This document shows, piece by piece, positions 4,652-48,271 of a stretch of DNA of 64,000 nt. This DNA is from an uncultured virus (IMG/VR IMGVR_UViG_3300011871_000042). Its lineage: Duplodnaviria; Heunggongvirae; Uroviricota; Caudoviricetes. The notes beneath the pieces are model-generated. The model did not search any database, had not been told where the DNA came from, and saw only the letters and a program-made list of their open reading frames with translations. The DNA lies in IMG/VR virus record IMGVR_UViG_3300011871_000042; one strand, given 5' to 3'. A program made the position numbers and the translations under genes. Position 1 is the stretch's first letter; every line of letters starts with the position of its first letter.

Positions 4652-6637
4652 TTAATTATCATATTCTACAGTGTTACCATATTCTTCCATCCATTCTTTA
4701 CGAGGAGGAATATTTTTACCCATGATTAGCTCAAAAGCATCTATGGTATCTTGTATGTTTTCAATACCAACTTCAAATAATTTTCTTTGGCTTGGATCCA
4801 TTGTTGTTTCTTTTAACTGATCAGGGTTCATTTCTCCAAGTCCTTTGAAGCGAGAAACTGTCCAGTTGGCATCTGTAAGACCTTCTTTAGCTAAATCTTT
4901 TAAAATACTATCTCTTTCTTGTTCTGTAATAGCATAGAATATCCTATTATCTTTTTTATTACCTTTTGAACCTTTCTTAGCTGGAGCATCTATACGATAT
5001 AAAGGTGGAACACCAATATATATTCTCTTATTCCTTATTAATTCAGGGAAATGCTTTAAGAATAGTGTTAATAATAATACCTGTATATGTAAACCATCTA
5101 CGTCAGCATCAGCAAGGATAATAATTTTACCATAACGTAATTTTGAAAGATCAACCTCTTCTGGTTTTTTATCTTTATGCGCTTCAACTCCAATAGCTAA
5201 AGAAATATCTCCAACAATAAATGCTTTATAAAGATCTTCATCTTTAGCATTCCATGTATTTAATAGTTTACCTCTTAATGGCAATATAGCTTGATACTCT
5301 CTATTACGCCCTTGTTTAGCTGAACCACCTGCGGAATCCCCTTCTACTAAATACAATTCAGTTAACTCTACTTCATCACTTTGACAATCTGAAAGTTTTC
5401 CCGGTAAAGCTGAAATAGAACTTATCTTTTTACGGTCAACTTTACTTGCTTCTTTTGTTCTTCTTGATGCTTCACTTACTACCATTTCAACAATGCTTTT
5501 AGCTTCATCTAAATGATTACTTAACCAAAGCTCTAAAACATCTTTTATTAAAGAGTTTACTAACTTGTTCGCTTGTCTTGATGTTAACTTATCTTTTGTT
5601 TGTCCCTGAAACTGTGGATCAGTTAGTTTTAAAGAAAGAACAAAAGACATTCGTGACCAAATATCATCAGCTTCTATTTTTAATTTGTTAGGTATAAGAT
5701 TTAATCTCTCAGCAAAGTTCTTTATAGCTTCAAAAACACCTGTTCTTAAACCTGCTTCATGTGTTCCTCCTGCTGGAGTAGGTATGAGGTTAACAAAGCT
5801 CTCACGAACAACTTTACCATAATCACTCCATCCTAATGCTAAAGCAAAGCCTTCACCTCGACGGAACTGTTCATTTGTTTCAAGTATATAAGTTTCATTA
5901 AAGAATGGTTCATCAGTTAACCAGTTAGATTCTCCCGCTTCTTCTTTAAGATAATCAGGAATACCATTTTCATAATGCCATTCAAGAGGAGCTTTATTAT
6001 TTTTTTCATAGACAAGAGAAACGCCTGACATTAAAACAGCTTTTGCTTTTAAATATCGTTCCATCTCTGTATTACTAATATTAGGAGAGTCAAAATATTG
6101 ACCATCAGGCCAAGTTTTAACCCTTGTTCCTGTTTTATCTTTTAACTCTGGAGGAAGTTTTTTTCTTTTTAAAGGTTCAACTAAATGACCATTTTCAAAA
6201 GCAAGACTATATTCATATCCATCACGCCATACAGTAGCTTCTAAACGTTTTGATAAAGCATTAGTTACTGAAACACCTACTCCATGTAAACCACCAGAGA
6301 ATTGATATGCTCCATCACCACTTGTTTTATTAAATTTACCACCTGAGTGGAGTTTAGTAAAAATAAGTTCAACAGCAGGTTTGCCTTCTTTTTTATGTNN
6401 NNNNNNNNCACGCCCATTATCTTCTATTGAATAAGCTCCATCATCATATTGTTTTACAATAATTTTAGTAGCAAATCCAGCTAATGCCTCATCTTGAGCA
6501 TTATCGATAACTTCTTGAATGATATGGTTTGGGTTTTCAGTTCGGGTATACATCCCCGGTCTATGTTTGACTGGCTCTAATCCTTCCAATACTTCAATAT
6601 CGTCTGAATCATATTTCTTTTTCTTTTCTGTAGCCAC
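4652..6637 (-). CDS. parE: DNA topoisomerase IV subunit B (contains an N gap)
   Basis: RPGMY, EVIDN, GGLHGVG, VEGDSAGGSAKQ, PLRGK, DADVDG, RFKGLGEMN. Confidence 0.92.
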   Translation of the reverse strand: MATEKKKKYDSDDIEVLEGLEPVKHRPGMYTRTENPNHIIQEVIDNAQDEALAGFATKIIVKQYDDGAYSIEDNGRXXXXHKKEGKPAVELIFTKLHSGGKFNKTSGDGAYQFSGGLHGVGVSVTNALSKRLEATVWRDGYEYSLAFENGHLVEPLKRKKLPPELKDKTGTRVKTWPDGQYFDSPNISNTEMERYLKAKAVLMSGVSLVYEKNNKAPLEWHYENGIPDYLKEEAGESNWLTDEPFFNETYILETNEQFRRGEGFALALGWSDYGKVVRESFVNLIPTPAGGTHEAGLRTGVFEAIKNFAERLNLIPNKLKIEADDIWSRMSFVLSLKLTDPQFQGQTKDKLTSRQANKLVNSLIKDVLELWLSNHLDEAKSIVEMVVSEASRRTKEASKVDRKKISSISALPGKLSDCQSDEVELTELYLVEGDSAGGSAKQGRNREYQAILPLRGKLLNTWNAKDEDLYKAFIVGDISLAIGVEAHKDKKPEEVDLSKLRYGKIIILADADVDGLHIQVLLLTLFLKHFPELIRNKRIYIGVPPLYRIDAPAKKGSKGNKKDNRIFYAITEQERDSILKDLAKEGLTDANWTVSRFKGLGEMNPDQLKETTMDPSQRKLFEVGIENIQDTIDAFELIMGKNIPPRKEWMEEYGNTVEYDN

Positions 6638-23187: not shown

Positions 23188-24072
23188 TTAACAACAATCC
23201 CAATTGAAATAAACTTTAGAAAAATCCCTTTCTTTTAGTTTACTCAACGAAATTCTCCAGTTAGCAACACCACAATCTCCCCACATCATATGTAGTTCGT
23301 CTTCGCTATCAAGCTGTAAAAGTAAAACCAAATCATTAGGAACATCCTTTTTACCTACATAATATAAAGGATCTGTTTGAGTGAAATAAGCATATCCTCC
23401 AACTTTAGAGCCAGCGTTATTAGCTTCTTCAACTTCATAATAAAGATCTTCATCATCCAAATTAAAACCTTGATTAGATGCTTTAAGGACTGCATGATTA
23501 TAAAGATCTTGTGTGCCTAATAGTTCTTCATGTTGTTTAAAGTTAACTTTAACAGATTTATCAAATGGCATATCATCATGGGTAGTATTAATATATATAA
23601 TATTTTCTGGAAGAAAATGTTCTACAGAAATATCCTCATGATAAACAACAAGAGTGCTTTCTTCTGTTTCAGGATATCCCCACATATCATCATCAAAAGC
23701 AAAGAAAAACTGAATAATCCCTTTTTGGGGGAAATCAGGAATTGCTTTATCAAATTGAATGCCGTCTTTTATAGCTTCTTCAATATTTAACTGAAAAATA
23801 AGTTTGGCTGTTTTACCATTTAATGTAGGATATTCTTTACCTTTAGGCCAATAGGGAACACCACCTATTTTTGATGAGAAAACATCTTTAAATTCATCAT
23901 ATGTGTCAGAAGATTTACCTATTTTAAAAAACGTCTTTAAAGTTGGTTGAAGTAATGAAACAATCGCNNNNNNNNNNNNNNNNNNNNNNNNNNNNNNNNN
24001 NNNNNNNNNNNNNNNNNNNNNNNNNNNNNNNNNNNNNNNNNNNNNNNTGTTTATCCATAAGGAACCTCTCAT
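23188..24072 (-). CDS. YwqG/DUF1963 family protein (5' end in an N gap)
   Basis: SKIGGVPYWP, FQLN, PQKGIIQFF, KVGGYAYFTQ.DP, LLQLDS, MWGDCG, WDC. Confidence 0.85.
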   Translation of the reverse strand: MRGSLWINXXXXXXXXXXXXXXXXXXXXXXXXXXXAIVSLLQPTLKTFFKIGKSSDTYDEFKDVFSSKIGGVPYWPKGKEYPTLNGKTAKLIFQLNIEEAIKDGIQFDKAIPDFPQKGIIQFFFAFDDDMWGYPETEESTLVVYHEDISVEHFLPENIIYINTTHDDMPFDKSVKVNFKQHEELLGTQDLYNHAVLKASNQGFNLDDEDLYYEVEEANNAGSKVGGYAYFTQTDPLYYVGKKDVPNDLVLLLQLDSEDELHMMWGDCGVANWRISLSKLKERDFSKVYFNWDCC

Positions 24073-25201: not shown

Positions 25202-26005
25202 TTAATGACAATCGAAGCTATAAAAAATGTTGTTAAAATCCAATTTTTTCAGATCTTCTATATCTATACGCCAATTGGCAACACCACAATCCCCCCAACA
25301 CATATCTTCTAAATCACTGTCAATCTGAAAAAGTAAAACTAAAGGATAAAGTTCATCAGGATATTTATCTATAAACTGATTATATTCATTCCATAAGGGA
25401 TCTTCTTGAGTAAAATAAGCATATCCACCTAATTTAGTTCCAGAGGTATAAGATTCAGGAATTTCGTCATTTTCCCACTGAATAATTTCTAATAGAGATT
25501 CATCTTTAAGTTCTTTTATATGCTTAGCTAAAAATCCTTGATAAAAAGAATCACAACAACCAATTAATTCTTTGGATTCATTCTTTAATGTAATTCTAAA
25601 GGATTCTTCATATCCAACATATTCATCATTAAGAGCTGTTTTTATTTGTTCATCTGTCAAGAAATGTTCTTGTTCTGTATTAGGATGATAAACAACTAAA
25701 GTATCTTCCCAGCATTCATCATGTTCAACCAAAAAGAATTGTAATATTCCTGTTGTTGGATAATAAGGGGAAATATTTTTTAGATTTACTTTTTTACTTA
25801 AATCATCAAGATTAAGTTGAGTAATCATTTTATAATTATTACCCTCAAACATAGGATATTTCTTATCTTTGGGCCAGTAAGGTATTCCACCTATTTTTGA
25901 AACCGTTATATCTTTATAAATATCATAAGGTGCTTCATCTAATATAAAATAATAAGCAGATCTTTCACTTGGTTTTAATTTATATTTTAGAGTTTTTATA
26001 TCCAT
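25202..26005 (-). CDS. YwqG/DUF1963 family protein
   Basis: SKIGGIPYWP, GILQFF, KLGGYAYFTQEDP, WGDCG. Confidence 0.85.
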   Translation of the reverse strand: MDIKTLKYKLKPSERSAYYFILDEAPYDIYKDITVSKIGGIPYWPKDKKYPMFEGNNYKMITQLNLDDLSKKVNLKNISPYYPTTGILQFFLVEHDECWEDTLVVYHPNTEQEHFLTDEQIKTALNDEYVGYEESFRITLKNESKELIGCCDSFYQGFLAKHIKELKDESLLEIIQWENDEIPESYTSGTKLGGYAYFTQEDPLWNEYNQFIDKYPDELYPLVLLFQIDSDLEDMCWGDCGVANWRIDIEDLKKLDFNNIFYSFDCH

Positions 26006-26111: not shown

Positions 26112-26654
26112 TTACATTTTAAGTTTATACTTATTTTCGAAACAACTATCTAAAACAGCCTGATAAGCTTTTCTCCATTTATGATGTTTTTCCCTCACAT
26201 TATTTTTATTAATAAATACTCTATCTGTGCTTTCATGAGATATATTGAAGTCAAGTATTTCAAATTGAGTTACCTTATAAAATAACTCTATGCCTTTTTC
26301 AGGATATCCATTTTCCATAGCAAGTGGAGCATTGGAGTTATCGACTAATATACCACCTATAACTTCATAATTTAAAGGAATAATAGAAGCTTCCTCTCTT
26401 GCCTCTCTAATAAGAGCTTGTTCTGGAGTTTCATCTTTCTCAATATGTCCTCCAATAATATCAATACCTCTATGATTAATAGTAAATAAAACATCATCAT
26501 TCAAAATAGGAAAGCAATGCGATGTTATTATAAAAGAATGAGGAAAAGATAAAACTTCTTCTTTATTCAAGAAATAAAGATCTACTTCACCATATTTAAA
26601 TTGTGTTTTTTCTGTAAAAATCATTTTATAATCCTTTTTTATAAAATTAGCCAC
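26112..26654 (-). CDS. NUDIX hydrolase
   Basis: GGHIEKDETPEQALIREAREEA Nudix box. Confidence 0.85.
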   Translation of the reverse strand: MANFIKKDYKMIFTEKTQFKYGEVDLYFLNKEEVLSFPHSFIITSHCFPILNDDVLFTINHRGIDIIGGHIEKDETPEQALIREAREEASIIPLNYEVIGGILVDNSNAPLAMENGYPEKGIELFYKVTQFEILDFNISHESTDRVFINKNNVREKHHKWRKAYQAVLDSCFENKYKLKM

Positions 26655-27846
26655 ATTGGGTTCCGGCTGTTATATTTTCAAAATTTAGTATTTTTAAATC
26701 GTCTTCATTTATATAAAAACAAAAAGCTCCAGAGTCTCCCCAATACATACCAGTATTTTCTGAGCACATTGTTTGTAATAAAACTCTATCATTACTACCT
26801 AGTTCTTGAACAGGTATTTCATAAGCTAATAAAGAATGCATGGATGTATAATCAAGTGAAATATGGGAATATGTAGCCATATGTTGTAAATCTGAAACAT
26901 CAGTTAATAATTCCAACTCTTCTGCTGTAAGATTAAATTGTTCCAAAATTTTCTCTTCTTTATAAAGAGGATATGAATCAGCATAATCTATATCAATAGC
27001 TACTTCATTTAATTTAAAATAATAATTGTTTTTTCTTTTAAGTTCTGACTTTTCAACATCAAGATAGTAAACTTGATTTGTTCCTTTTTCATCTATTTTA
27101 TCAAGGAAATAAATATAATCATCATAATCTAGATGTGCAACAGCACTAAAAAAATAAAGAAATCCTGTATTTGGTAATAAATTGTCTGACATGTTAGGAT
27201 CTATTTCTGATAAATCTATTTGAGCCAAAAATGTTAATGGTTTATTATCACATGTAGGCCATAAAAAATCTTTTGGTAAATCGGGTTGTCCTCCTAATTT
27301 TGAAGAACCTTTAGTTATTTTTTTATTAATATTCTCAATCAACATAACAGACTTTTTCTTTGTCTTTTCAAAAATATATCTATATTTATCAGCTTGTTTA
27401 TATTCAATAGCCCAATCTAAGATATCTTCTTTACTTAGTTTTTCATTAAATACTTTTTTAAAAAAATCGTAATGATATTGTTTTTTGTAATTGTTATATA
27501 CATTATCATATGATTTTTTTATCAAATAAAATATGAAGTTTTCATTATTCTTATTTATTTTATAAATGGGGATTTCATACCAATTATATTCATCAAGATC
27601 TTCTCCCCATGATCGTTTTTTAGTGTCATAAATTAAATTAGGATAATCTTGTTTATCTTTTTTGTATATTCGTAACAAAATAACATCTTCATAAAACATA
27701 ATAAAATCAGGAATCCCCCAATTAAATATTCTATAAGATAAACAACTTTTAAATACATGTTTTCCTTTTTTTAAACCTCTATATATATTAATTGTAGAAA
27801 AAGGGAGTGAAGCACTATATTCTATAAATTTTTGGCATTTATTCAT
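26647..27846 (-). CDS. YwqG/DUF1963 domain protein with an extra N-terminal domain
   Basis: SKLGGQPDLP..WP..PLTFLAQIDL, LPNTGFLYFF, WGDSG. Confidence 0.8.
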   Translation of the reverse strand: MNKCQKFIEYSASLPFSTINIYRGLKKGKHVFKSCLSYRIFNWGIPDFIMFYEDVILLRIYKKDKQDYPNLIYDTKKRSWGEDLDEYNWYEIPIYKINKNNENFIFYLIKKSYDNVYNNYKKQYHYDFFKKVFNEKLSKEDILDWAIEYKQADKYRYIFEKTKKKSVMLIENINKKITKGSSKLGGQPDLPKDFLWPTCDNKPLTFLAQIDLSEIDPNMSDNLLPNTGFLYFFSAVAHLDYDDYIYFLDKIDEKGTNQVYYLDVEKSELKRKNNYYFKLNEVAIDIDYADSYPLYKEEKILEQFNLTAEELELLTDVSDLQHMATYSHISLDYTSMHSLLAYEIPVQELGSNDRVLLQTMCSENTGMYWGDSGAFCFYINEDDLKILNFENITAGTQCG

Positions 27847-33881: not shown

Positions 33882-35588
33882 TTAATCTAAAAGTTTAGAA
33901 ACTGTATTTTCTGAGATAAATGTCTTCCTCGCAATAGGAATATTTCTTCCCAATCCAAATGTATTGCTTCTTACGCGAATAATAGGGCAAGATTGTTTTC
34001 TTTTAAATTCTGCGAGTTCAACTTTCTTAAGGATTTCCATTCCCTTTTCATGGCTAAATTTATTTTCTCTCAAAAACTCTTTACGTTTAAGAATACTTTC
34101 TTCATCCATAGATTTACCTTCAAGATAAAGCTGTAAAAAAGCATCAAGAATAGGGTAATCAGGTAAAGAATCTTGATCAGTCTGTCCCGGAAATAGTTCC
34201 GCTGATGGTGCTTTTTCAATAACAGAACGAGGCATTTTACCAAGATCAGCATAATGTTCCAGCATTCTGTAAACTTCTGTTTTATAGAGATCTCCAATAG
34301 GGTTTAAACCACCATTAGTATCGCCATAAAGCGTACAATAACCAACAGAGACTTCACTCTTATTACCTGTAGACAATACAAGAGAGTTATCCTGATTAGA
34401 CCATGCCATAATAGATGTTCCACGGATACGAGCTTGTAGGTTTTCCATAGTTAAACGGTTAGGCTCCTGACCAAAAGCAGTCTTAAATGCCTCAACAGCA
34501 GCTTGGAAATCATCTTTACTAGGCCGCTCCTAAAGTTTGACACCCAACATTTCAGCAAGTGCCTGACTGTCTGTAACACTACCAGCAGAAGAAATCTGAC
34601 TTGGCATCGTTACTGCTGTAATATTATCAGCCCCTAAAGCATCAACAGCTAATGCTAATACTAAAGAACTATCCGCACCACCAGACAATGCTAAACTTGC
34701 TCTTTTAATACCATTCTTATAGAAAAAATCCCTAATTCCCATAACCAACTGATGTTTTACAAATCCTATCCACTGCTCATTGTCAGTATCAATACTTGCA
34801 TCTTTATCAAATACAGATTCTCCAAGCCATTTCGTATCAAATGATTGTGTATCGACAGTTAAAACACCTTCTGAAAAGAAAGGAGCTTGTTTAATCTCAC
34901 CATTAGGTAAAGCAATATAGCTACCACCATCAAAAACAATAGTATCATTACCACCAACTTGATTCACAGAAATGTAAGGAATTTGTTTTTCTTTAGCAAT
35001 ACCCCCAAAGATCTTTTTCCTTAAATGATTTTTACGCAAACTTGACGGAGATGCGTTAATAGATAAATAAAAATCGATACCTTCACTTGCCAGATCATTA
35101 ACAGGGTTTACTTTATATGAACCATCAGTATTCCAACCATCCTCACAAATAAGAACACCAACATGATGCTCATTCAAAGAAATACTTTCAGATTTTTCTC
35201 CCGCTTCGAAATAACGATTTTCATCAAATACATCATAAGTCGGAAGAAGGCGTTTTACTGCAACAATTTTTACATTTTTACCATCTAGTAAGACAGCCTG
35301 ATTTTCATGAGACTTACCGTATAAGCGAGTATTAATTCCAACACGTCCTACAATAGCTTTTTGATTTCTTGAAGCTAACCATGAATTTAATTCATTAATA
35401 ACACTATTTTGTTCATCTAAAAAATCCTGACGATGAATCATGTCATTGATTTGATATCCACTGAAAGTTAACTCTGGACCAACCAAAAGATGATCGCATG
35501 GTACATTCAAAGCAAGTTCCTTGAATTTTTCCAGATTCCCTTTAAAATCACCAACAGTAGAATTTAATTGAATAAGAGCTATTTTCAT
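33882..35588 (-). CDS. nadE: Glutamine-dependent NAD+ synthetase, interrupted by one in-frame TAG at 34530-34532
   Basis: Nitrilase domain (PEL, KRLLP.YDVFDE, ICED) + LSGGADS, ENLQARIRG, TGNKSE, PSAEL; the two listed ORFs are in the same frame (..GVKL*ERPSKDDF..LTMEN). Confidence 0.9.
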
Positions 35589-43143: not shown

Positions 43144-43168
43144 AAAAAAGGGCCGAAGCCCTTTTTTT
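43144..43168 (-). terminator. Intrinsic terminator after rpoD
   Basis: AAAAAAGGGC-CGAA-GCCCTTTTTT (UUCG loop on the minus strand). Confidence 0.85.
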
Positions 43169-44970
43169 TAATCAATTAAATCTTGCATTTCTTCAACACG
43201 ATGAGGTTTCTTAAGCTTATCTATTGCTTTAGCCTCTATCTGGCGTATACGCTCACGAGTTAGATTCATATCTTCACCTACTTCTTCTAATGTATGTTCG
43301 CGCTGCATATCAATACCAAAACGCATTCTAAGAACTTTAGCTTCTCTTGGATCCAAGGTACTAAGGATGCTATTTAAACGCTTATTTTGGCTTTCTTGTT
43401 CAATCATTTCTTGAGGCATCATTTGCTCATCTTCAATGAAATCACCTAATGTACTTGAGCCATCATCACCTACAGGAGTTTCAAGAGAAACAGTTTCTTT
43501 AGCAGCAGCATAAATAGCTTTTATTTTGGCTTCTGTTGTCCCCATATATTTAGCTAGATCTTCAATCGTTGGAGCTTTACCAGTTTCTTGTAAAATAATA
43601 CGAGTAGCTTTCTTCAATCGTTGAATAGAATCAACCATATAAACTGGAACTCTAACTGTTCTGCTTTGATCAGCTAAAGCACGAGTAATAGACTGTCGAA
43701 TCCACCAAGTAGCATATGTTGAAAACTTAAATCCACGTCTATGTTCAAACTTATCTACAGCTTTCATCAATCCAATATTGCCTTCCTGAATAACATCAAG
43801 TAAAGTTAATCCATAATGGAAATATTTTTTAGCAATCGAAACAACCAGTCTAAGGTTAGATTCAATCATTTTCTTTTTAGCGCCTTTCATTGTTTCATGA
43901 GCATTTGTAGCTTTAGTGCTAATTTGCTTTAACTTAGGAACTGAAAGACCATTTACACCTACAATAGCAACTATAGCTTGTTGTTTCTGTTCAATCTTTT
44001 CTAAATAAGCTTGGATTTTTTCTTTATTTTTATCATTCAATCCAATATGCCAATTACTATTTACCTCATTGCCAATAAATGCTTTACGGAAATCTTCAAA
44101 GACAACACGAGCTTTTAAAGTCACAATATCTTTTATTTCTTTTTCTATTTCACGAATTTTAGTAATATCTTGTTTTAACGTAGTATTAAGTTTATCAACA
44201 GTTTTCTGTGTAAATCTAATGTCAGTTAACAATGTGTTCATATCATTACAGGCATTAATATAAGTAATACTATTTTCACCTTCTTTCAAACCTTCCTTCA
44301 TTGCTGAAAGGATAGCAGGAATTTTTTCAGAGATAGCCGCAATTTCAATACGAATTTTCTCGGAGTTAATATCGTTAATATCATAGTCTTCGTCTTCATT
44401 TTCAGAGAAATTCAATGGTGACGAAATATCAGAATCATCTTCTACATCTTCCTCATTTTCAGAAATAACGATACCTTCATCTAAAAAGCTAATCCCGTCA
44501 ATAACTTCATTAACATCTACTTTTTTATCAACAACATCAACTAAAAGGGTATACAAATCATAACAAACAGAAGGTGAAAGAATCATAACATTTAGATGTT
44601 CTTGTCTAGCTTTTTCAATAATATCACACAACTCATACTCTTTTTCTTTAGTTAAAAGAGGAGAACGACTAAGATTTCTCATATAAAGTCTAGTAGAATC
44701 AGTGCTTACAACATCACTCGCAGATGCAATTTCGTCCATAGCATCATCACGATCAATAGAATCAACAAATTTATCTACAGTATCATGTTCTTCTTCAGAA
44801 GCATCATTTACAACAATACCAAGCTCTTGGATGGTATGAACTACGTGTTCAAAAGTACTTTCACTTGTATCGGCAGGAAGAGCCTCTTTAATATCTTCCA
44901 GAGTTAAAAATCCATTAACTTCACCTGTCTCTATCAAACTTGAAATATTTACTGAACTACTTTTATTCAT
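43168..44970 (-). CDS. rpoD: Primary-type RNA polymerase sigma-70 factor
   Basis: Regions 1.1, 1.2 and [59 protein letters not shown]. Confidence 0.93.
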
Positions 44971-45175: not shown

Positions 45176-46713
45176 TCAATTATTAATGAATATTAAATCA
45201 TCAATTGATGTTGTGATAAAAGGAATAAAGGGATTAAACAATATCAAATACCTCTGTAATATCATTAAGCCCTCAATAGCAATGTCTTTGTTATTATTCC
45301 ATAATTCCTTTTTATTTTGTTCAATCCAATAGTCACAAAAGTAAGATCTGAAATGATTCTGAAGCTGCCTTGAACAAGTAGAAAATTTATCCTTTGAAAG
45401 CAAATCATACCATGTTTCTGTGATTTTGTCCATTTCTGATGAAATGAAATCCCTCTCTTTTATATCCTTTTTATTATCTATAAAATAGGTATGCATATTA
45501 ATAAATCTTGATGCTTGCCATATTTTATTAATAAATTTCTTTTCTTCATTTAGCCAATCAAGATTAAATTTTATATCTAATCCGGGTTCTGTATGATTAC
45601 ATAATGTCCATCTTAGGCAATCAGCACCATGAGACTCTATACAAAGTAAAGGATCTATTCCGTTCCCCAAAGATTTAGACATTTTCTTATTATTTTTATC
45701 TCTTATTATTCCATGTAAATAAATTTCATTAAAGGGATATTTACCTGTGATTAATTTACACATCATTAACATTCTTGCACACCAAAAGAAAATAATATCA
45801 TCCGCTGTTTCAAGCCATGAGCAAGGATAAAATTGTTCAAAATCGGTTGTTTTGTGAGGCCATCCAAGAATTGCTGCAGGCCATATAGAAGATAAAAACC
45901 ATGTATCAAAAGTAAAGTTTTCTTTTATCCAGTTGGGATCACTGTGATCTATATCGCTAAAACGAGCTGTACGCTCTTCTAATGAGTTATAAGCTATAGG
46001 GATAGGCAAACCCCAAGGTATCTGTCTTGATATGCACCAAGGCTCTATATTTTTAAGAAAACTGATCAGTGTATTTTTACCACTTTCAGGAGTAATTTTA
46101 ATTATACCAGATTCAAGATCTTTTAAAAGCTCTTGAGCTAAATTAGTCATATCTAAATAATACTGATTATTTTCTCTATACAACATTCCATTTTCATAAC
46201 AAATATCAAAAGCTTTCAGAGAAGATTTTTTATATTCTTCATCAAGTGTAAAACGTTCTTTATTCCAGTTACAGGAAGCTCCCATACTAAAAATCTGAGT
46301 TTTTATTCTGCGTTGATAAAAATCTTTCCAAATATTGGCTTCTTCAAAATAAGCAGAAAGATCGTTAGGATCTAAATTTTTCTCATTCATTGAAAGTAAT
46401 ATTTTTTCATGAGTTGCTAAACCTGCATGATCCGTTCCCGGAATCCACAATGAATTATTCCCAATAATAGTATTAAATCTGGTTTTAATATCTTGTAATG
46501 TTAAGAACAATGAGTGTCCTAAATGTAATTGACCTGTAATATTAGGTGGTGGCATTGGTAGGAACCAATTTTGTTTTTTATGATTAGGTAAAGACAGTTT
46601 GAAGTGATTTAAAAGATCTTGCTGAGGATTATTTCCCCATTTTGAAATTAATCTAGATTCCTCAGATTGGAAATCAAAGAATTTATTTAGTTCATTACGT
46701 TTAACTGTGTCAT
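45176..46713 (-). CDS. valS: Minimal valyl-tRNA synthetase (no CP1 editing domain or C-terminal coiled coil); start is out of frame
   Basis: PPPNITGQLHLGH, PGTDHAG.AT, WCISRQ, DTWF.S, FFWCARM, KMSKSLGN; the frame is open about 53 codons upstream of 46555 with FDFQSEE..SKW but has no in-frame ATG/GTG/TTG. Confidence 0.85.
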
Positions 46714-46957
46714 AGCATCCTCCTATTTATTTTTACTTGACGAAAAAATAATAAAATATTTCAAAGTAATTTTCAATTGTTTTTTACGTATTTTTTGAAA
46801 AAATAATCTTCCAAGAAATCCAAAATTTGTACCTATTTTTTAAAACCAAAATTTTACCTTAGAAGAAAAACTGTAATTAAATTATAATTAAGAATTAATT
46901 AAGGGGGAAAAAAAGGCTATTTTTTCTTTAATATTCAATAAGATAAAAATACGAACA

Positions 46958-47139
46958 TATCCACTCACTACGGTAAAATAGCTACTCACTACGGTATTTT
47001 AGCCACCGCCTACGGTAATTTTAGCTACTCACTACGGTAAAATAGCTACTGCCTACGGTAATATTAAGTGTGAAATATTGCTTTTTTTAGCCACTCACTA
47101 CGGTAGAAACGGATAAAAATATAGCCACTCACTACGGTA
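46958..47139 (+). repeat. Seven 18-bp iterons (consensus TAGCYACTCACTACGGTA), putative replication origin
   Basis: Copies start at 46958, 46979, 47000, 47022, 47043, 47088, 47122; 21-22 bp period for the first five; AT-rich tract upstream; rep gene downstream. Confidence 0.9.
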
Positions 47140-47224: not shown

Positions 47225-48271
47225 ATGGAAAAAGAATTAGAGTTAGAAAAAGAAAGTGTCATTAATAAGAATAAAATAAAAATAATAAAACCCGCCATAA
47301 TAATAGCAGCAGATAATATAGAAAGTAAGGTAGAAAATGAAGAATTGACACCTTGGCCTATTGTAAGGAATTTCGGCATTCCTAATAAAATGTTAAGAAG
47401 TGCCTTGTTTGGAATTCAAAGAGAAAGGTCGGGAGTAGTTCCAGTTGATGATATGATTATTCCATGTCCTGAAGGAACTAAAATAAAGTATTCTGGACCA
47501 GTATTAAATCAGGATGATTCTTTGGTTTGGCAAATGATTGTTAGAGCTATTAGACAGAATAAAGCGCCTATGGGAGGATTAATTCAGCTATCTTCTCAAG
47601 AGATGTTAAAAGTATTAGATAGAACAGATGGTGGCCCTAATTTTTTATGGTTAAAATCATGTTTAGATAGATTAACAAAAGCTCATATTGTTATAGATAC
47701 ACCTAATGACGAAATAAGAAGTCATTTATTAGTAGGATATAGAGTAGATAAAAAGACAAAAAAAATAAACGTAGGAATAAGTGCTCTCCTTTATCCATTA
47801 TTTATTGGAGATCTTACTGATATTGATGTTATTAGAAAAACAAAGTTAAAAAGTCAAATATCAAGATGGCTTCATGATTTTTATTCTTCTCATTCAGAAC
47901 CTGTTCCTTATACTATTCAGAGGATTCAGGAACTATCAAGATCTAACAAACAAACAAGTAAGTTTAGAAAAATGATAGAAGGTGCAATAGAAGAGTTAAA
48001 ATATTGTGATCCTCCTCTTTTCACAGAAGATAGCTATTTAGATAAAAAAACAGATCAGCTTATTATCTATAAAGCAACTAATAGCCCCGGAGAAGCTCCT
48101 AAAAAAGTTTATGAGGCTAAATCAATAAAAACCATAGAAAGTAAATCAGATAAGAATTCAAGAGATGTAGAGTTAATAATGCATAGATTTAATATGACAG
48201 AAGAAGAAGTCGTATCACTAAATAATAGAGATTTTAAAAATTTACTTCAAAGCTTAAAACTAGCTTTATAA
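47225..48271 (+). CDS. trfA: TrfA-family plasmid replication initiator
   Basis: PN.MLRSALFG, IKYSG..LNQDD.LVW, R.DGG.N...L..CLDRL, WLH.FYSSH..P.P; next to iterons. Confidence 0.8.
   Translation: MEKELELEKESVINKNKIKIIKPAIIIAADNIESKVENEELTPWPIVRNFGIPNKMLRSALFGIQRERSGVVPVDDMIIPCPEGTKIKYSGPVLNQDDSLVWQMIVRAIRQNKAPMGGLIQLSSQEMLKVLDRTDGGPNFLWLKSCLDRLTKAHIVIDTPNDEIRSHLLVGYRVDKKTKKINVGISALLYPLFIGDLTDIDVIRKTKLKSQISRWLHDFYSSHSEPVPYTIQRIQELSRSNKQTSKFRKMIEGAIEELKYCDPPLFTEDSYLDKKTDQLIIYKATNSPGEAPKKVYEAKSIKTIESKSDKNSRDVELIMHRFNMTEEEVVSLNNRDFKNLLQSLKLAL

Follow-up and report, generated by a model that had tools for sequence, protein, structure and literature searches.

The stretch of DNA analysed here, hereafter the window, comprises 64,000 nucleotides of an uncultured virus of the Caudoviricetes (IMG/VR record IMGVR_UViG_3300011871_000042). 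Its minus strand carries valS, the gene of a small valyl-tRNA synthetase (ValRS), preceded by a very short leader open reading frame (ORF) in another frame, from which the enzyme is probably reached by a −1 ribosomal frameshift. All features of this locus lie on the minus strand. The leader, which defines frame 0, reads ATG ACA CAG TTA AAC GTA ATG AAC TAA (MTQLNVMN*, eight codons; 46687..46713). Its ATG at 46713 is served by the Shine–Dalgarno (SD) sequence AGGAGG (46719..46724, read from 46724 to 46719) at a spacing of 5 nt; the same SD may also stimulate the shift from the 5′ side. Relative to the leader, the ValRS frame is −1. It is open from 46726, just past a TAA at 46729-46727, extends over 516 codons to 45176 and reads IGGCYDTVKRNELNKFFDFQSEES...WFLPMPPPN at its N-terminus. 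The first ATG, GTG or TTG in this frame is an ATG at 46555 (codon 58, encoding the M of MPPPN), leaving 57 codons without a start. The body of the enzyme in the −1 frame, stop codon included, occupies 45176..46699, with the HIGH motif (HLGH) at 46525-46514 and the KMSKS motif at 45685-45671.

The two frames would be joined at the proposed shift site A_AAC_GTA (46696..46702). The Asn codon AAC (46701-46699, preceded by an A at 46702) would occupy the ribosomal P site and the Val codon GTA (46698-46696) the A site, and CGT (Arg; 46697..46699) would be the first ValRS-frame codon read after the shift. Further downstream, the leader stop TAA (46689-46687) overlaps the ValRS-frame Leu codon CTA (46690-46688; 46687..46690 for the two together), which encodes the first residue that aligns to canonical ValRS. 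The 44 N-terminal ValRS codons located between the leader stop and the first in-frame ATG (46556..46686) are translated, as judged from the coding-type change in relatives described below. An earlier sequence-only reading of this locus had pointed to the AGGAGG, the 5 nt spacing, the ATG and the octapeptide, to the −1 frame that opens after a stop at the SD without an ATG, GTG or TTG of its own, and to a GTA directly following the slippery-like TTA AAC. We re-derived all of the coordinates from the sequence and found each of these elements in place, including A_AAC_GTA at 46702-46696. Out-of-frame SD–ATG pairs are flagged in six open frames of the window (among those of at least 100 aa), and valS is the only one of the six in which the pair stands right at the beginning (codon 4), the frame itself lacking an SD–ATG and, for 57 codons, any start. 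The leader anatomy at valS is more than chance would give.

The enzyme itself is readily recognized. Pfam finds tRNA-synt_1 (PF00133; 279 bits) and Anticodon_1 (32.6 bits) on the ValRS frame, and the closest solved structure is Thermus thermophilus ValRS (PDB entry 1GAX; phmmer E-value 2e-82), with isoleucyl-tRNA synthetase (IleRS) behind at about 1e-29. Query residues 13-186 align to residues 3-170 of 1GAX and query residues 185-508 to residues 355-690. Homology to canonical ValRS thus begins at the Leu codon overlapping the leader stop, L13 of the frame corresponding to L3 of the T. thermophilus enzyme, and the proposed match of the frame to a normal ValRS N-terminus is borne out. The jump of the alignment from residue 170 to residue 355 of 1GAX at query positions 185/186 identifies a mini form of ValRS, in which both the CP1 editing domain and the C-terminal coiled coil are absent from the alignment to 1GAX. 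Compared with canonical bacterial ValRS (1GAX), the Rossmann-fold catalytic core, the HIGH and KMSKS motifs and the helical anticodon-binding domain are alike, whereas the window enzyme is devoid of about 185 CP1 residues and about 170 C-terminal residues and would measure about 512 aa instead of 860-950 aa. By its sequence the window gene is a ValRS-derived mini form with its class I catalytic core, HIGH and KMSKS intact. A ValRS deprived of its editing domain should, on this domain composition, mischarge threonine, which raises the question of its benefit to a phage. The mini form is also encoded by complete phage genomes of 436-578 kb and by phages RAS14 and CM1. In the 634-kb phage LR745206, the mini class I enzyme is of another kind and starts at an ordinary ATG. 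Finally, it should be noted that the full-length ValRSs of the metagenome loci L096-L171 (with N-termini of the MLEKTFEP and MEFKKYNH types), which we judged to be alphaproteobacterial from their sequence type, share FFWCARM and IEPWC[IL]SR with the mini enzymes. These family-specific motifs common to both suggest that the mini form arose from an alphaproteobacterial-type ValRS by loss of CP1.

An assembly deletion of 1 nt had been regarded as the main alternative to a frameshift. We looked at the 701 bases around the site (46300-47000), which are found in 20 listed sequencing runs from 13 studies, and aligned the contigs of four of these runs to the window; these are assembled contigs rather than raw reads, and one run, X1, may be the source sample. 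An 88-kb contig from X1 and a 39-kb contig from X4 span 46300-47000 with zero and one base differences, respectively, and without gaps. An RNA-library contig (X16, record 7) covers 46648-47000, with a sole indel at 46797, outside the leader. Together with the out-of-frame ATG kept in all 16 homologous loci (see below), the gap-free contigs of two runs speak against the deletion, and this alternative was abandoned. Near-identical copies of 46300-47000 (94-100% of sampled words) turn up in runs labelled as plant, groundwater, microbial mat, gut or air metagenome, as well as in several runs of single organisms; the element that carries this stretch is either very widespread or a common contaminant.

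We then compared the locus with its relatives. Sixteen mini-ValRS relatives with DNA were available: ten loci on viral contigs (L083-L089 and L179-L181), five from metagenomes (L092-L095 and L106) and one from phage RAS14 (L185). Among the viral records are four complete genomes (436-578 kb, with terminal repeats), and RAS14 is a cultured Stenotrophomonas phage. The five metagenome loci came from a scan with a family-specific block that returned 80 loci, the other 75 being canonical-length or cut ValRSs of the alphaproteobacterial type. One of the five (L092), with the same leader, lies on a metagenome contig of 1,859,102 bp on which the neighbouring ORFs have no Pfam match and long ORFs are sparse. 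Counts of 17 below refer to the window plus these 16 relatives.

An SD-like block followed by an ATG in the leader frame (+1 to ValRS) is present at all 17 loci, with 14-20 nt between the SD and the P-site codon (counted on the 17 loci). The leaders are 6-11 codons long, stop not counted, in each of the 16 relatives, and their peptides include MTQLNVMN (window), MTQLNVI, MSPLNVI, MSPLNV (RAS14), MTLLDVI, MTTLDVSN, MLDVSN, MWDVRS and MTTLEV. Their variation is confined within a fixed framework. Zero or two codons separate the ATG from a T-N-R codon (TTA, TTG, TGG or TCA). The P-site codon is AAC at five loci, GAC at ten and GAA at two, and its first base always equals the preceding base (A_AAC, G_GAC or G_GAA; 17/17). 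The codon that follows is a Val codon at every locus (GTA in 14, GTC in three). From there to the leader stop (TAA in 11 loci, TGA in five and TAG in one) there are zero, one, two or five codons, and the stop invariably overlaps the ValRS-frame codon of the first conserved residue (CTA in 12 loci, CTG in four and ATG in RAS14). The comparison that had been put forward for this site, namely a conserved out-of-frame AUG and (A)AAC-GTN in homologous mini valS genes, thus came out positive at 17 of 17 loci, with a broader rule for the core: N_NAC or N_NAA and then GTA or GTC.

Within this 10-nt core, the two overlapping frames do not change in the same way. The leader-frame residues are similar (Asn, Asp or Glu), whereas the ValRS-frame residue that overlaps them is either Lys (AAA) or Gly (GGA), two radically different residues. 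The next ValRS-frame codon, which would be read after the shift, is CGT in 15 loci and AGT in L095 and L180, so that Arg is replaced by Ser (as is also seen in P0088 and P0062), the Val codon keeping its GT throughout; the N-terminal extensions that have been called in relatives show only R or S at this position. Downstream of the leader the picture is that of an ordinary coding sequence. In six related phage loci, the differences in the stretch from the leader to MPPPN fall on codon positions 1, 2 and 3 in the proportion 78/68/216, and 143 codon differences are synonymous to 112 non-synonymous when read in the ValRS frame; the two remaining frames give 32/248 and 31/239. This stretch is therefore translated, which excludes both a ValRS start at MPPPN and decay of the gene. 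The other synthetase genes of the same phages (IleRS, MetRS and CysRS) have ordinary in-frame ATGs.

The annotated proteins of the family lead to the same region. A scan of a representative protein library at 50% identity gave 16,156 matches at E ≤ 0.001, topped by about twenty mini-type representatives, ahead of full-length ValRS; the nearest protein cluster is 97% viral in the protein atlas. The 120 clusters nearest to the window protein were classified by their N-terminus, and removal of four that lack PPPN left 116. Gene callers begin 67 of these at MPPPN, ten at internal Met residues and seven at the V position, and a further 24 carry the leader translated in the ValRS frame (GG[CS][YHD][VD][TI][VI][KG][RS]) behind a chance upstream start. 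Only eight have a plausible ordinary N-terminus. Since about 108 of the 116 clusters fall in the other start classes, most of the family has no normal start. Most members are annotated 50-60 residues too short, and because most are called from MPPPN the catalogues of phage synthetases carry truncated models. The relatives that do have an in-frame start are informative about the product: the N-terminus is MPSKQLNARLTRHFDH in P0021, MPSNQGPRTSRLSRHFDH in P0012 and P0020, VPSNLTKHF in P0098 and MNRWSKYFDH in P0125. These N-termini resemble leader residues (M-S/P-P/S-..-L-N) followed by ValRS-frame residues from the Arg onwards, with no Val in between. This is the protein that a shift with Asn in the P site predicts, and it fits neither reinitiation at the Leu codon nor a start at the GTN codon discussed below.

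Three other searches added no further leaders. A degenerate DNA pattern of the translated leader motif gave only two chance matches in viral contigs; a scan of genome contigs with whole-protein alignment returned, among the matches listed, only canonical ValRS; and protein searches limited to N-terminal regions found only the query or P0002.

A passage between frames is needed at this locus, as a start is found only in the leader frame and the ValRS frame already has coding character ahead of its first ATG. We propose the following mechanism. The true start of valS would be the leader ATG at 46713, from which the ribosome would read M-T-Q-L-N, bringing Asn-tRNA on AAC into the P site and GTA into the A site. 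Some ribosomes would then slip one base back, from AAC to AAA, and continue with CGT (Arg) in the ValRS frame, to yield a product of about 512 residues made of five leader residues and, from R10 onwards, the ValRS frame. Without a slip, ribosomes would decode Val and terminate three codons later at the TAA. This would be one-tRNA slippage within the P site at a 'hungry' codon, for which a downstream RNA structure would not be needed, and the initiating SD may add some pull, as in dnaX. Scarcity of Val-tRNA would lengthen the pause, increase slippage and hence increase ValRS synthesis, in analogy with RF2 sensing UGA in prfB. As the codon in the A site is one that the product of the enzyme itself serves, the likely logic of the site would be that of sensor and effector in one. 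Re-pairing of the P-site tRNA one base upstream is possible at all 17 loci, the second pair becoming G-U for G_GAC and G_GAA. In the sampled ORFs of four megaphage records (G001-G004), GTA represents 9-18% of Val codons, and in L093 11%; it is the rarest Val codon there and yet it is kept.

The two parts of this proposal do not stand equally firm. A −1 shift in the leader is probably the route to the enzyme, and this half of the earlier suggestion, a slip while AAC occupies the P site, finds good support in the comparison, both in the 17 loci and in the N-termini of the in-frame relatives. That the shift also responds to Val-tRNA, as the same suggestion had it, is more tentative, and on the conserved sequences we would put it a little short of an even chance. 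Extended to all members, the reading that the whole phage-type mini ValRS family is switched on by a valine-sensing −1 shift at a single Val codon in a leader of 6-11 codons receives from us a probability of roughly 0.4.

Several observations weigh against this reading. The states A_AAC, G_GAC and G_GAA of the P-site codon fall into two or three clades, so that the 17 loci represent few independent events. In the AT-rich window GTA amounts to 37% of Val codons, and codon rarity cannot explain a pause where the codon is common. The site does not correspond to classical two-tRNA −1 programmed ribosomal frameshifting: no X_XXY_YYZ heptamer is present in the loci, and G_TTA_AAC and G_TTG_GAC bar re-pairing of tRNA-Leu in the P site. 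No consistent 3′ structure was found, the folds of the 70 nt downstream differing between loci, with z-scores from +1.3 to −3.4. At the G_GAC sites the re-paired GGA keeps only the first pair plus the middle G-U. Moreover, the G and T that precede the T-N-R codon show no variation in any of the 17 loci. They begin a Val codon of the ValRS frame (GTT in 12 loci, GTG in four and GTC in one), and in the leader frame the G is the third position of otherwise variable codons (CAG, CCG, CTG, ACG, ATG and TCG). Slippage leaves this invariant G-T unexplained; translation in the ValRS frame from this position onwards would be in keeping with it. The conservation is not absolute, as P0017 has Ile at this GTN position. 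An E-site effect as its cause is a guess on our part. A 4-bp stem can be drawn between GTNW and the stop plus one base, fully paired at 11 of the 17 loci and with three of its four pairs at the remaining six; two of the pairs follow from the composition of stop codons, and only one covariation, in L093, supports the stem.

The sequencing runs contain a second copy of the leader, which also counts against strict valine specificity. A second contig (23,566 bp in X1 and 6,801 bp in X4) matches the window at 46692-46724 only, with 31 of 33 bases identical. Its depth is close to that of the paired window contig (439 against 408 and 66 against 69 in the two runs X1 and X4). The leader of this copy ends in ...ATG ATT TAA, and the −1-frame peptide, RNDLIEIYNTHS, resembles the N-termini of cysteinyl-tRNA synthetases (CysRS) such as MLEIYNS in L203. 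With only two differences in 33 bases, the Val codon of this copy cannot be a Cys codon. A near-identical copy preceding a CysRS-like gene means that the leader is apparently not specific to valS in this organism, and a strictly valine-specific reading is weakened. Judging from this arrangement, the leader may serve synthetase genes as a portable cassette. No second leader was found in the window, in RAS14 or in five megaphage records, where the extra motif matches are all inside ordinary coding sequence.

We may wonder at this stage whether the shift is real but independent of valine. The leader would then act as a throttle of fixed ratio or would answer to another signal, such as translation stress, a phage factor or the modification of the Asn, Asp or Glu tRNAs, and the GT after the P-site codon would be kept since the post-slip codon (CGT or AGT) must be decoded fast. 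The near-identical leader before the CysRS-like gene in the same runs and the frequency of GTA in the window both favour this view, as does the fact that a cognate codon in the A site is expected by chance at a rate of about 4/61. In addition, the P-site codons AAC, GAC and GAA are read by tRNAs with heavily modified wobble bases. On the other hand, the A site holds Val in 17 of 17 loci, from lineages of about 29% GC to GC-rich ones, while the overlapping residue varies between Arg and Ser; GTA persists even where no other Val codon is rarer; and the match between enzyme and codon is what a sensor requires. We regard a valine-independent shift as a genuine possibility, at odds well below even. 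Explanations that dispense with a frameshift fare less well. The leader could be a separate small ORF, with ValRS produced by termination and reinitiation at the codon overlapping its stop (CTA, CTG or ATG). The stop does overlap that codon at all 17 loci despite the variable distance from Val to stop, and the overlapping codon sits at the canonical ValRS N-terminus. In RAS14 the overlap is ATGA, a classic coupling signature that again argues against our proposal, and P0109 and P0070 begin with M there. However, ATGA occurs in RAS14 alone (1/17), the others having CTAA, CTGA or CTAG; CTA, which to our knowledge is not an initiator, stands in 12 loci and CTG in four. At that position the RAS14 relative P0133 carries Ile, and TTA stands there in the second leader copy. 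With the CTA/CTG majority, these two cases indicate that NTR followed by A represents a leader stop combined with a hydrophobic residue, and not a start codon. The leader-like residues at the N-termini of in-frame relatives also tell against reinitiation, and a stall at the Val codon would lower the coupling, which is the wrong direction for a synthetase. We therefore consider reinitiation unlikely.

A direct start in the ValRS frame, whether at the conserved GTN that precedes the Arg by two codons or at another non-canonical codon, would make use of the otherwise puzzling G and T that are invariant at 17 of 17 loci with a variable third base. In L083, L088, L089 and L181 the codon is GTG, a possible direct start and thus a further point against the frameshift; it is the called start in P0079, P0090 and P0103, and P0075 has an in-frame ATG three codons upstream (MGNVGR). 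Yet it is GTT in 12 loci and GTC in one, and close relatives interchange GTG and GTT (L083 and L181 compared with L084 and L179). A start codon should not tolerate such an interchange, so GTN is an unlikely functional start. Furthermore, P0017 has Ile at the position, P0021, P0012 and P0098 lack the V-K/G residues altogether, and in the window the SD is 13 nt away, as counted. Such a start is in our view very improbable. Least probable, to the point of being nearly negligible, is an artefact or decay, be it an assembly indel, a pseudogene or a start at MPPPN. Gene callers do start 67 of the 116 relatives at MPPPN, and the run data consist of contigs, but these contigs are gap-free, the anatomy is kept in 16 of 16 relatives, the 39 codons before MPPPN evolve as coding sequence and align to a solved ValRS, and HIGH and KMSKS are intact.

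Other candidates were tried and rejected. Transcriptional slippage would call for a homopolymer run, which is absent from the site. An altered genetic code does not address the problem, which is one of frame and not of stops, and TAG, TGA and TAA all end ORFs of the window. No T-box or other Rfam family was found. Mimicry of the tRNA-Val anticodon loop is not apparent on inspection, as no U stands before the NAC triplet. Hopping across the stop from the final codon of the leader would fit the window (AAC..AAT) and fails, also on inspection, in L084 and L087. Finally, transcription attenuation through a leader peptide is at odds with the single Val codon and with the lack of a terminator-like site in 46555-46726; the leader overlaps the coding frame, which leaves no room for a terminator.

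The window may belong to a huge phage, a megaplasmid or a small-genome bacterium. It has about 29% GC and encodes gyrase subunits, RecA, RecJ, Tmk, RNases H and HII, NadE, PncB, ankyrin proteins and many ORFans; one strong PHROG match (phrog_2426; E-value 2e-192) was obtained in it, and no tRNA genes were found in it. A match to a σ70-like promoter (TTGAAA-17 nt-TATTAT; 46748..46776, minus strand) lies about 24 nt upstream of the SD and agrees with ten of 12 consensus positions, the joint best in the region; such sites are as numerous as expected from shuffled sequence, which makes it weak evidence. Directly downstream of valS, a full-length RpoD-type sigma factor (regions 1.1 to 4) is encoded at 43168-44970 on the minus strand, and a TrfA-like replication initiator at 47225-48271 on the plus strand is divergent from valS. 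The combination of an RpoD-type sigma factor and a TrfA-like initiator is unusual for a phage or a chromosome. Elsewhere in the window, a glutamine-dependent NAD synthetase gene (CN_hydrolase and NAD_synthase domains; 33882-35588, minus strand) is split by a single in-frame TAG at 34532-34530 and would comprise 568 codons if read through. TAG ends five of the 64 long ORFs of the window, so there is no sign of a general reassignment, and this TAG could be a nonsense mutation, a readthrough site or an error. Three DUF1963 paralogues lie close together on the minus strand (23188-24072, 25202-26005 and 26647-27846), with a run of 80 Ns inside the first. Runs of ten Ns are found at 6399, 7817 and 43005, the last inside an NT5C-like gene.

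No published description of a valS leader of this kind was found in full-text literature searches; subscription journals and supplements fell outside this scope, and an earlier description is possible. The words synthetase, frameshift and aaRS are absent from a 2026 review of jumbo phages (PMC13282480). In the material consulted on the GeneTack clusters, a single 'tRNA synthetase' cluster appears, with +1 transitions, and is classed as phase variation. Few natural cases of regulatory frameshifting are known in bacteria, prfB being the classic one. The resemblance to the +1 shift of prfB, as far as the accounts consulted describe it, lies in a short first ORF with its own SD and ATG, a protein encoded in another frame and a frame-0 stop at or near the site. 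In both, the A-site codon is decoded through the activity of the gene product itself, and a shortage of that product would, as proposed here, lengthen the pause and increase shifting. The differences are equally clear: the shift is −1 and not +1, the A-site codon is a sense codon for Val, read by a tRNA that the enzyme charges, and not a stop codon read by a protein, a CUU_UGA_C motif is lacking and the distance between SD and P-site codon is 14-20 nt, compared with 3 nt in prfB.

The mechanism itself has closer parallels in one-tRNA slippage at hungry codons. As summarized in the sections consulted of the review by Korniy and Rodnina (PMC6771820), a vacant A site lets a single P-site tRNA slip by −1, slowly and without a 3′ structure, and in GGG-GAA-AGA tRNA-Glu on GAA slips by −1 when decoding of AGA is delayed. 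The same single-tRNA logic without a 3′ structure applies to dnaX with a vacant A site, to the FFR route of HIV-1 and to GGG-GAA-AGA suppression (PMC6771820), and the G_GAA of L095 and L180 is the very slip site of the latter. The cases described there are laboratory starvation or suppressor situations, or side routes of heptamer sites, whereas here slippage would be the sole route to the enzyme, at a site conserved in a whole family. For functional trans-frame proteins made by hungry-codon shifting, Atkins and colleagues (2016; PMC5009743) state that 'no examples are known', and no synthetase gene figures among the regulatory cases in the part of their review consulted here. If our reading is true, the mini ValRS family would be the first natural example of hungry-codon frameshifting as sensor and effector. 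The candidate is directly testable, since it is conserved in complete genomes of huge phages and in the cultured phage RAS14 of Stenotrophomonas.

Synthetase expression is tied to the charging of the cognate tRNA by leader-peptide attenuation in pheST, by operator mimicry in thrS and by T-box leaders. A short leader ORF with cognate codons is common to pheST and to the system described here, in which the cognate codon is single. The overlap of leader and gene leaves neither a terminator nor an antiterminator, and no Rfam family (T-box included) and no tRNA-like fold was found at the locus. A valine-sensing shift would, if true, constitute a fourth, purely ribosomal way to regulate a synthetase gene.

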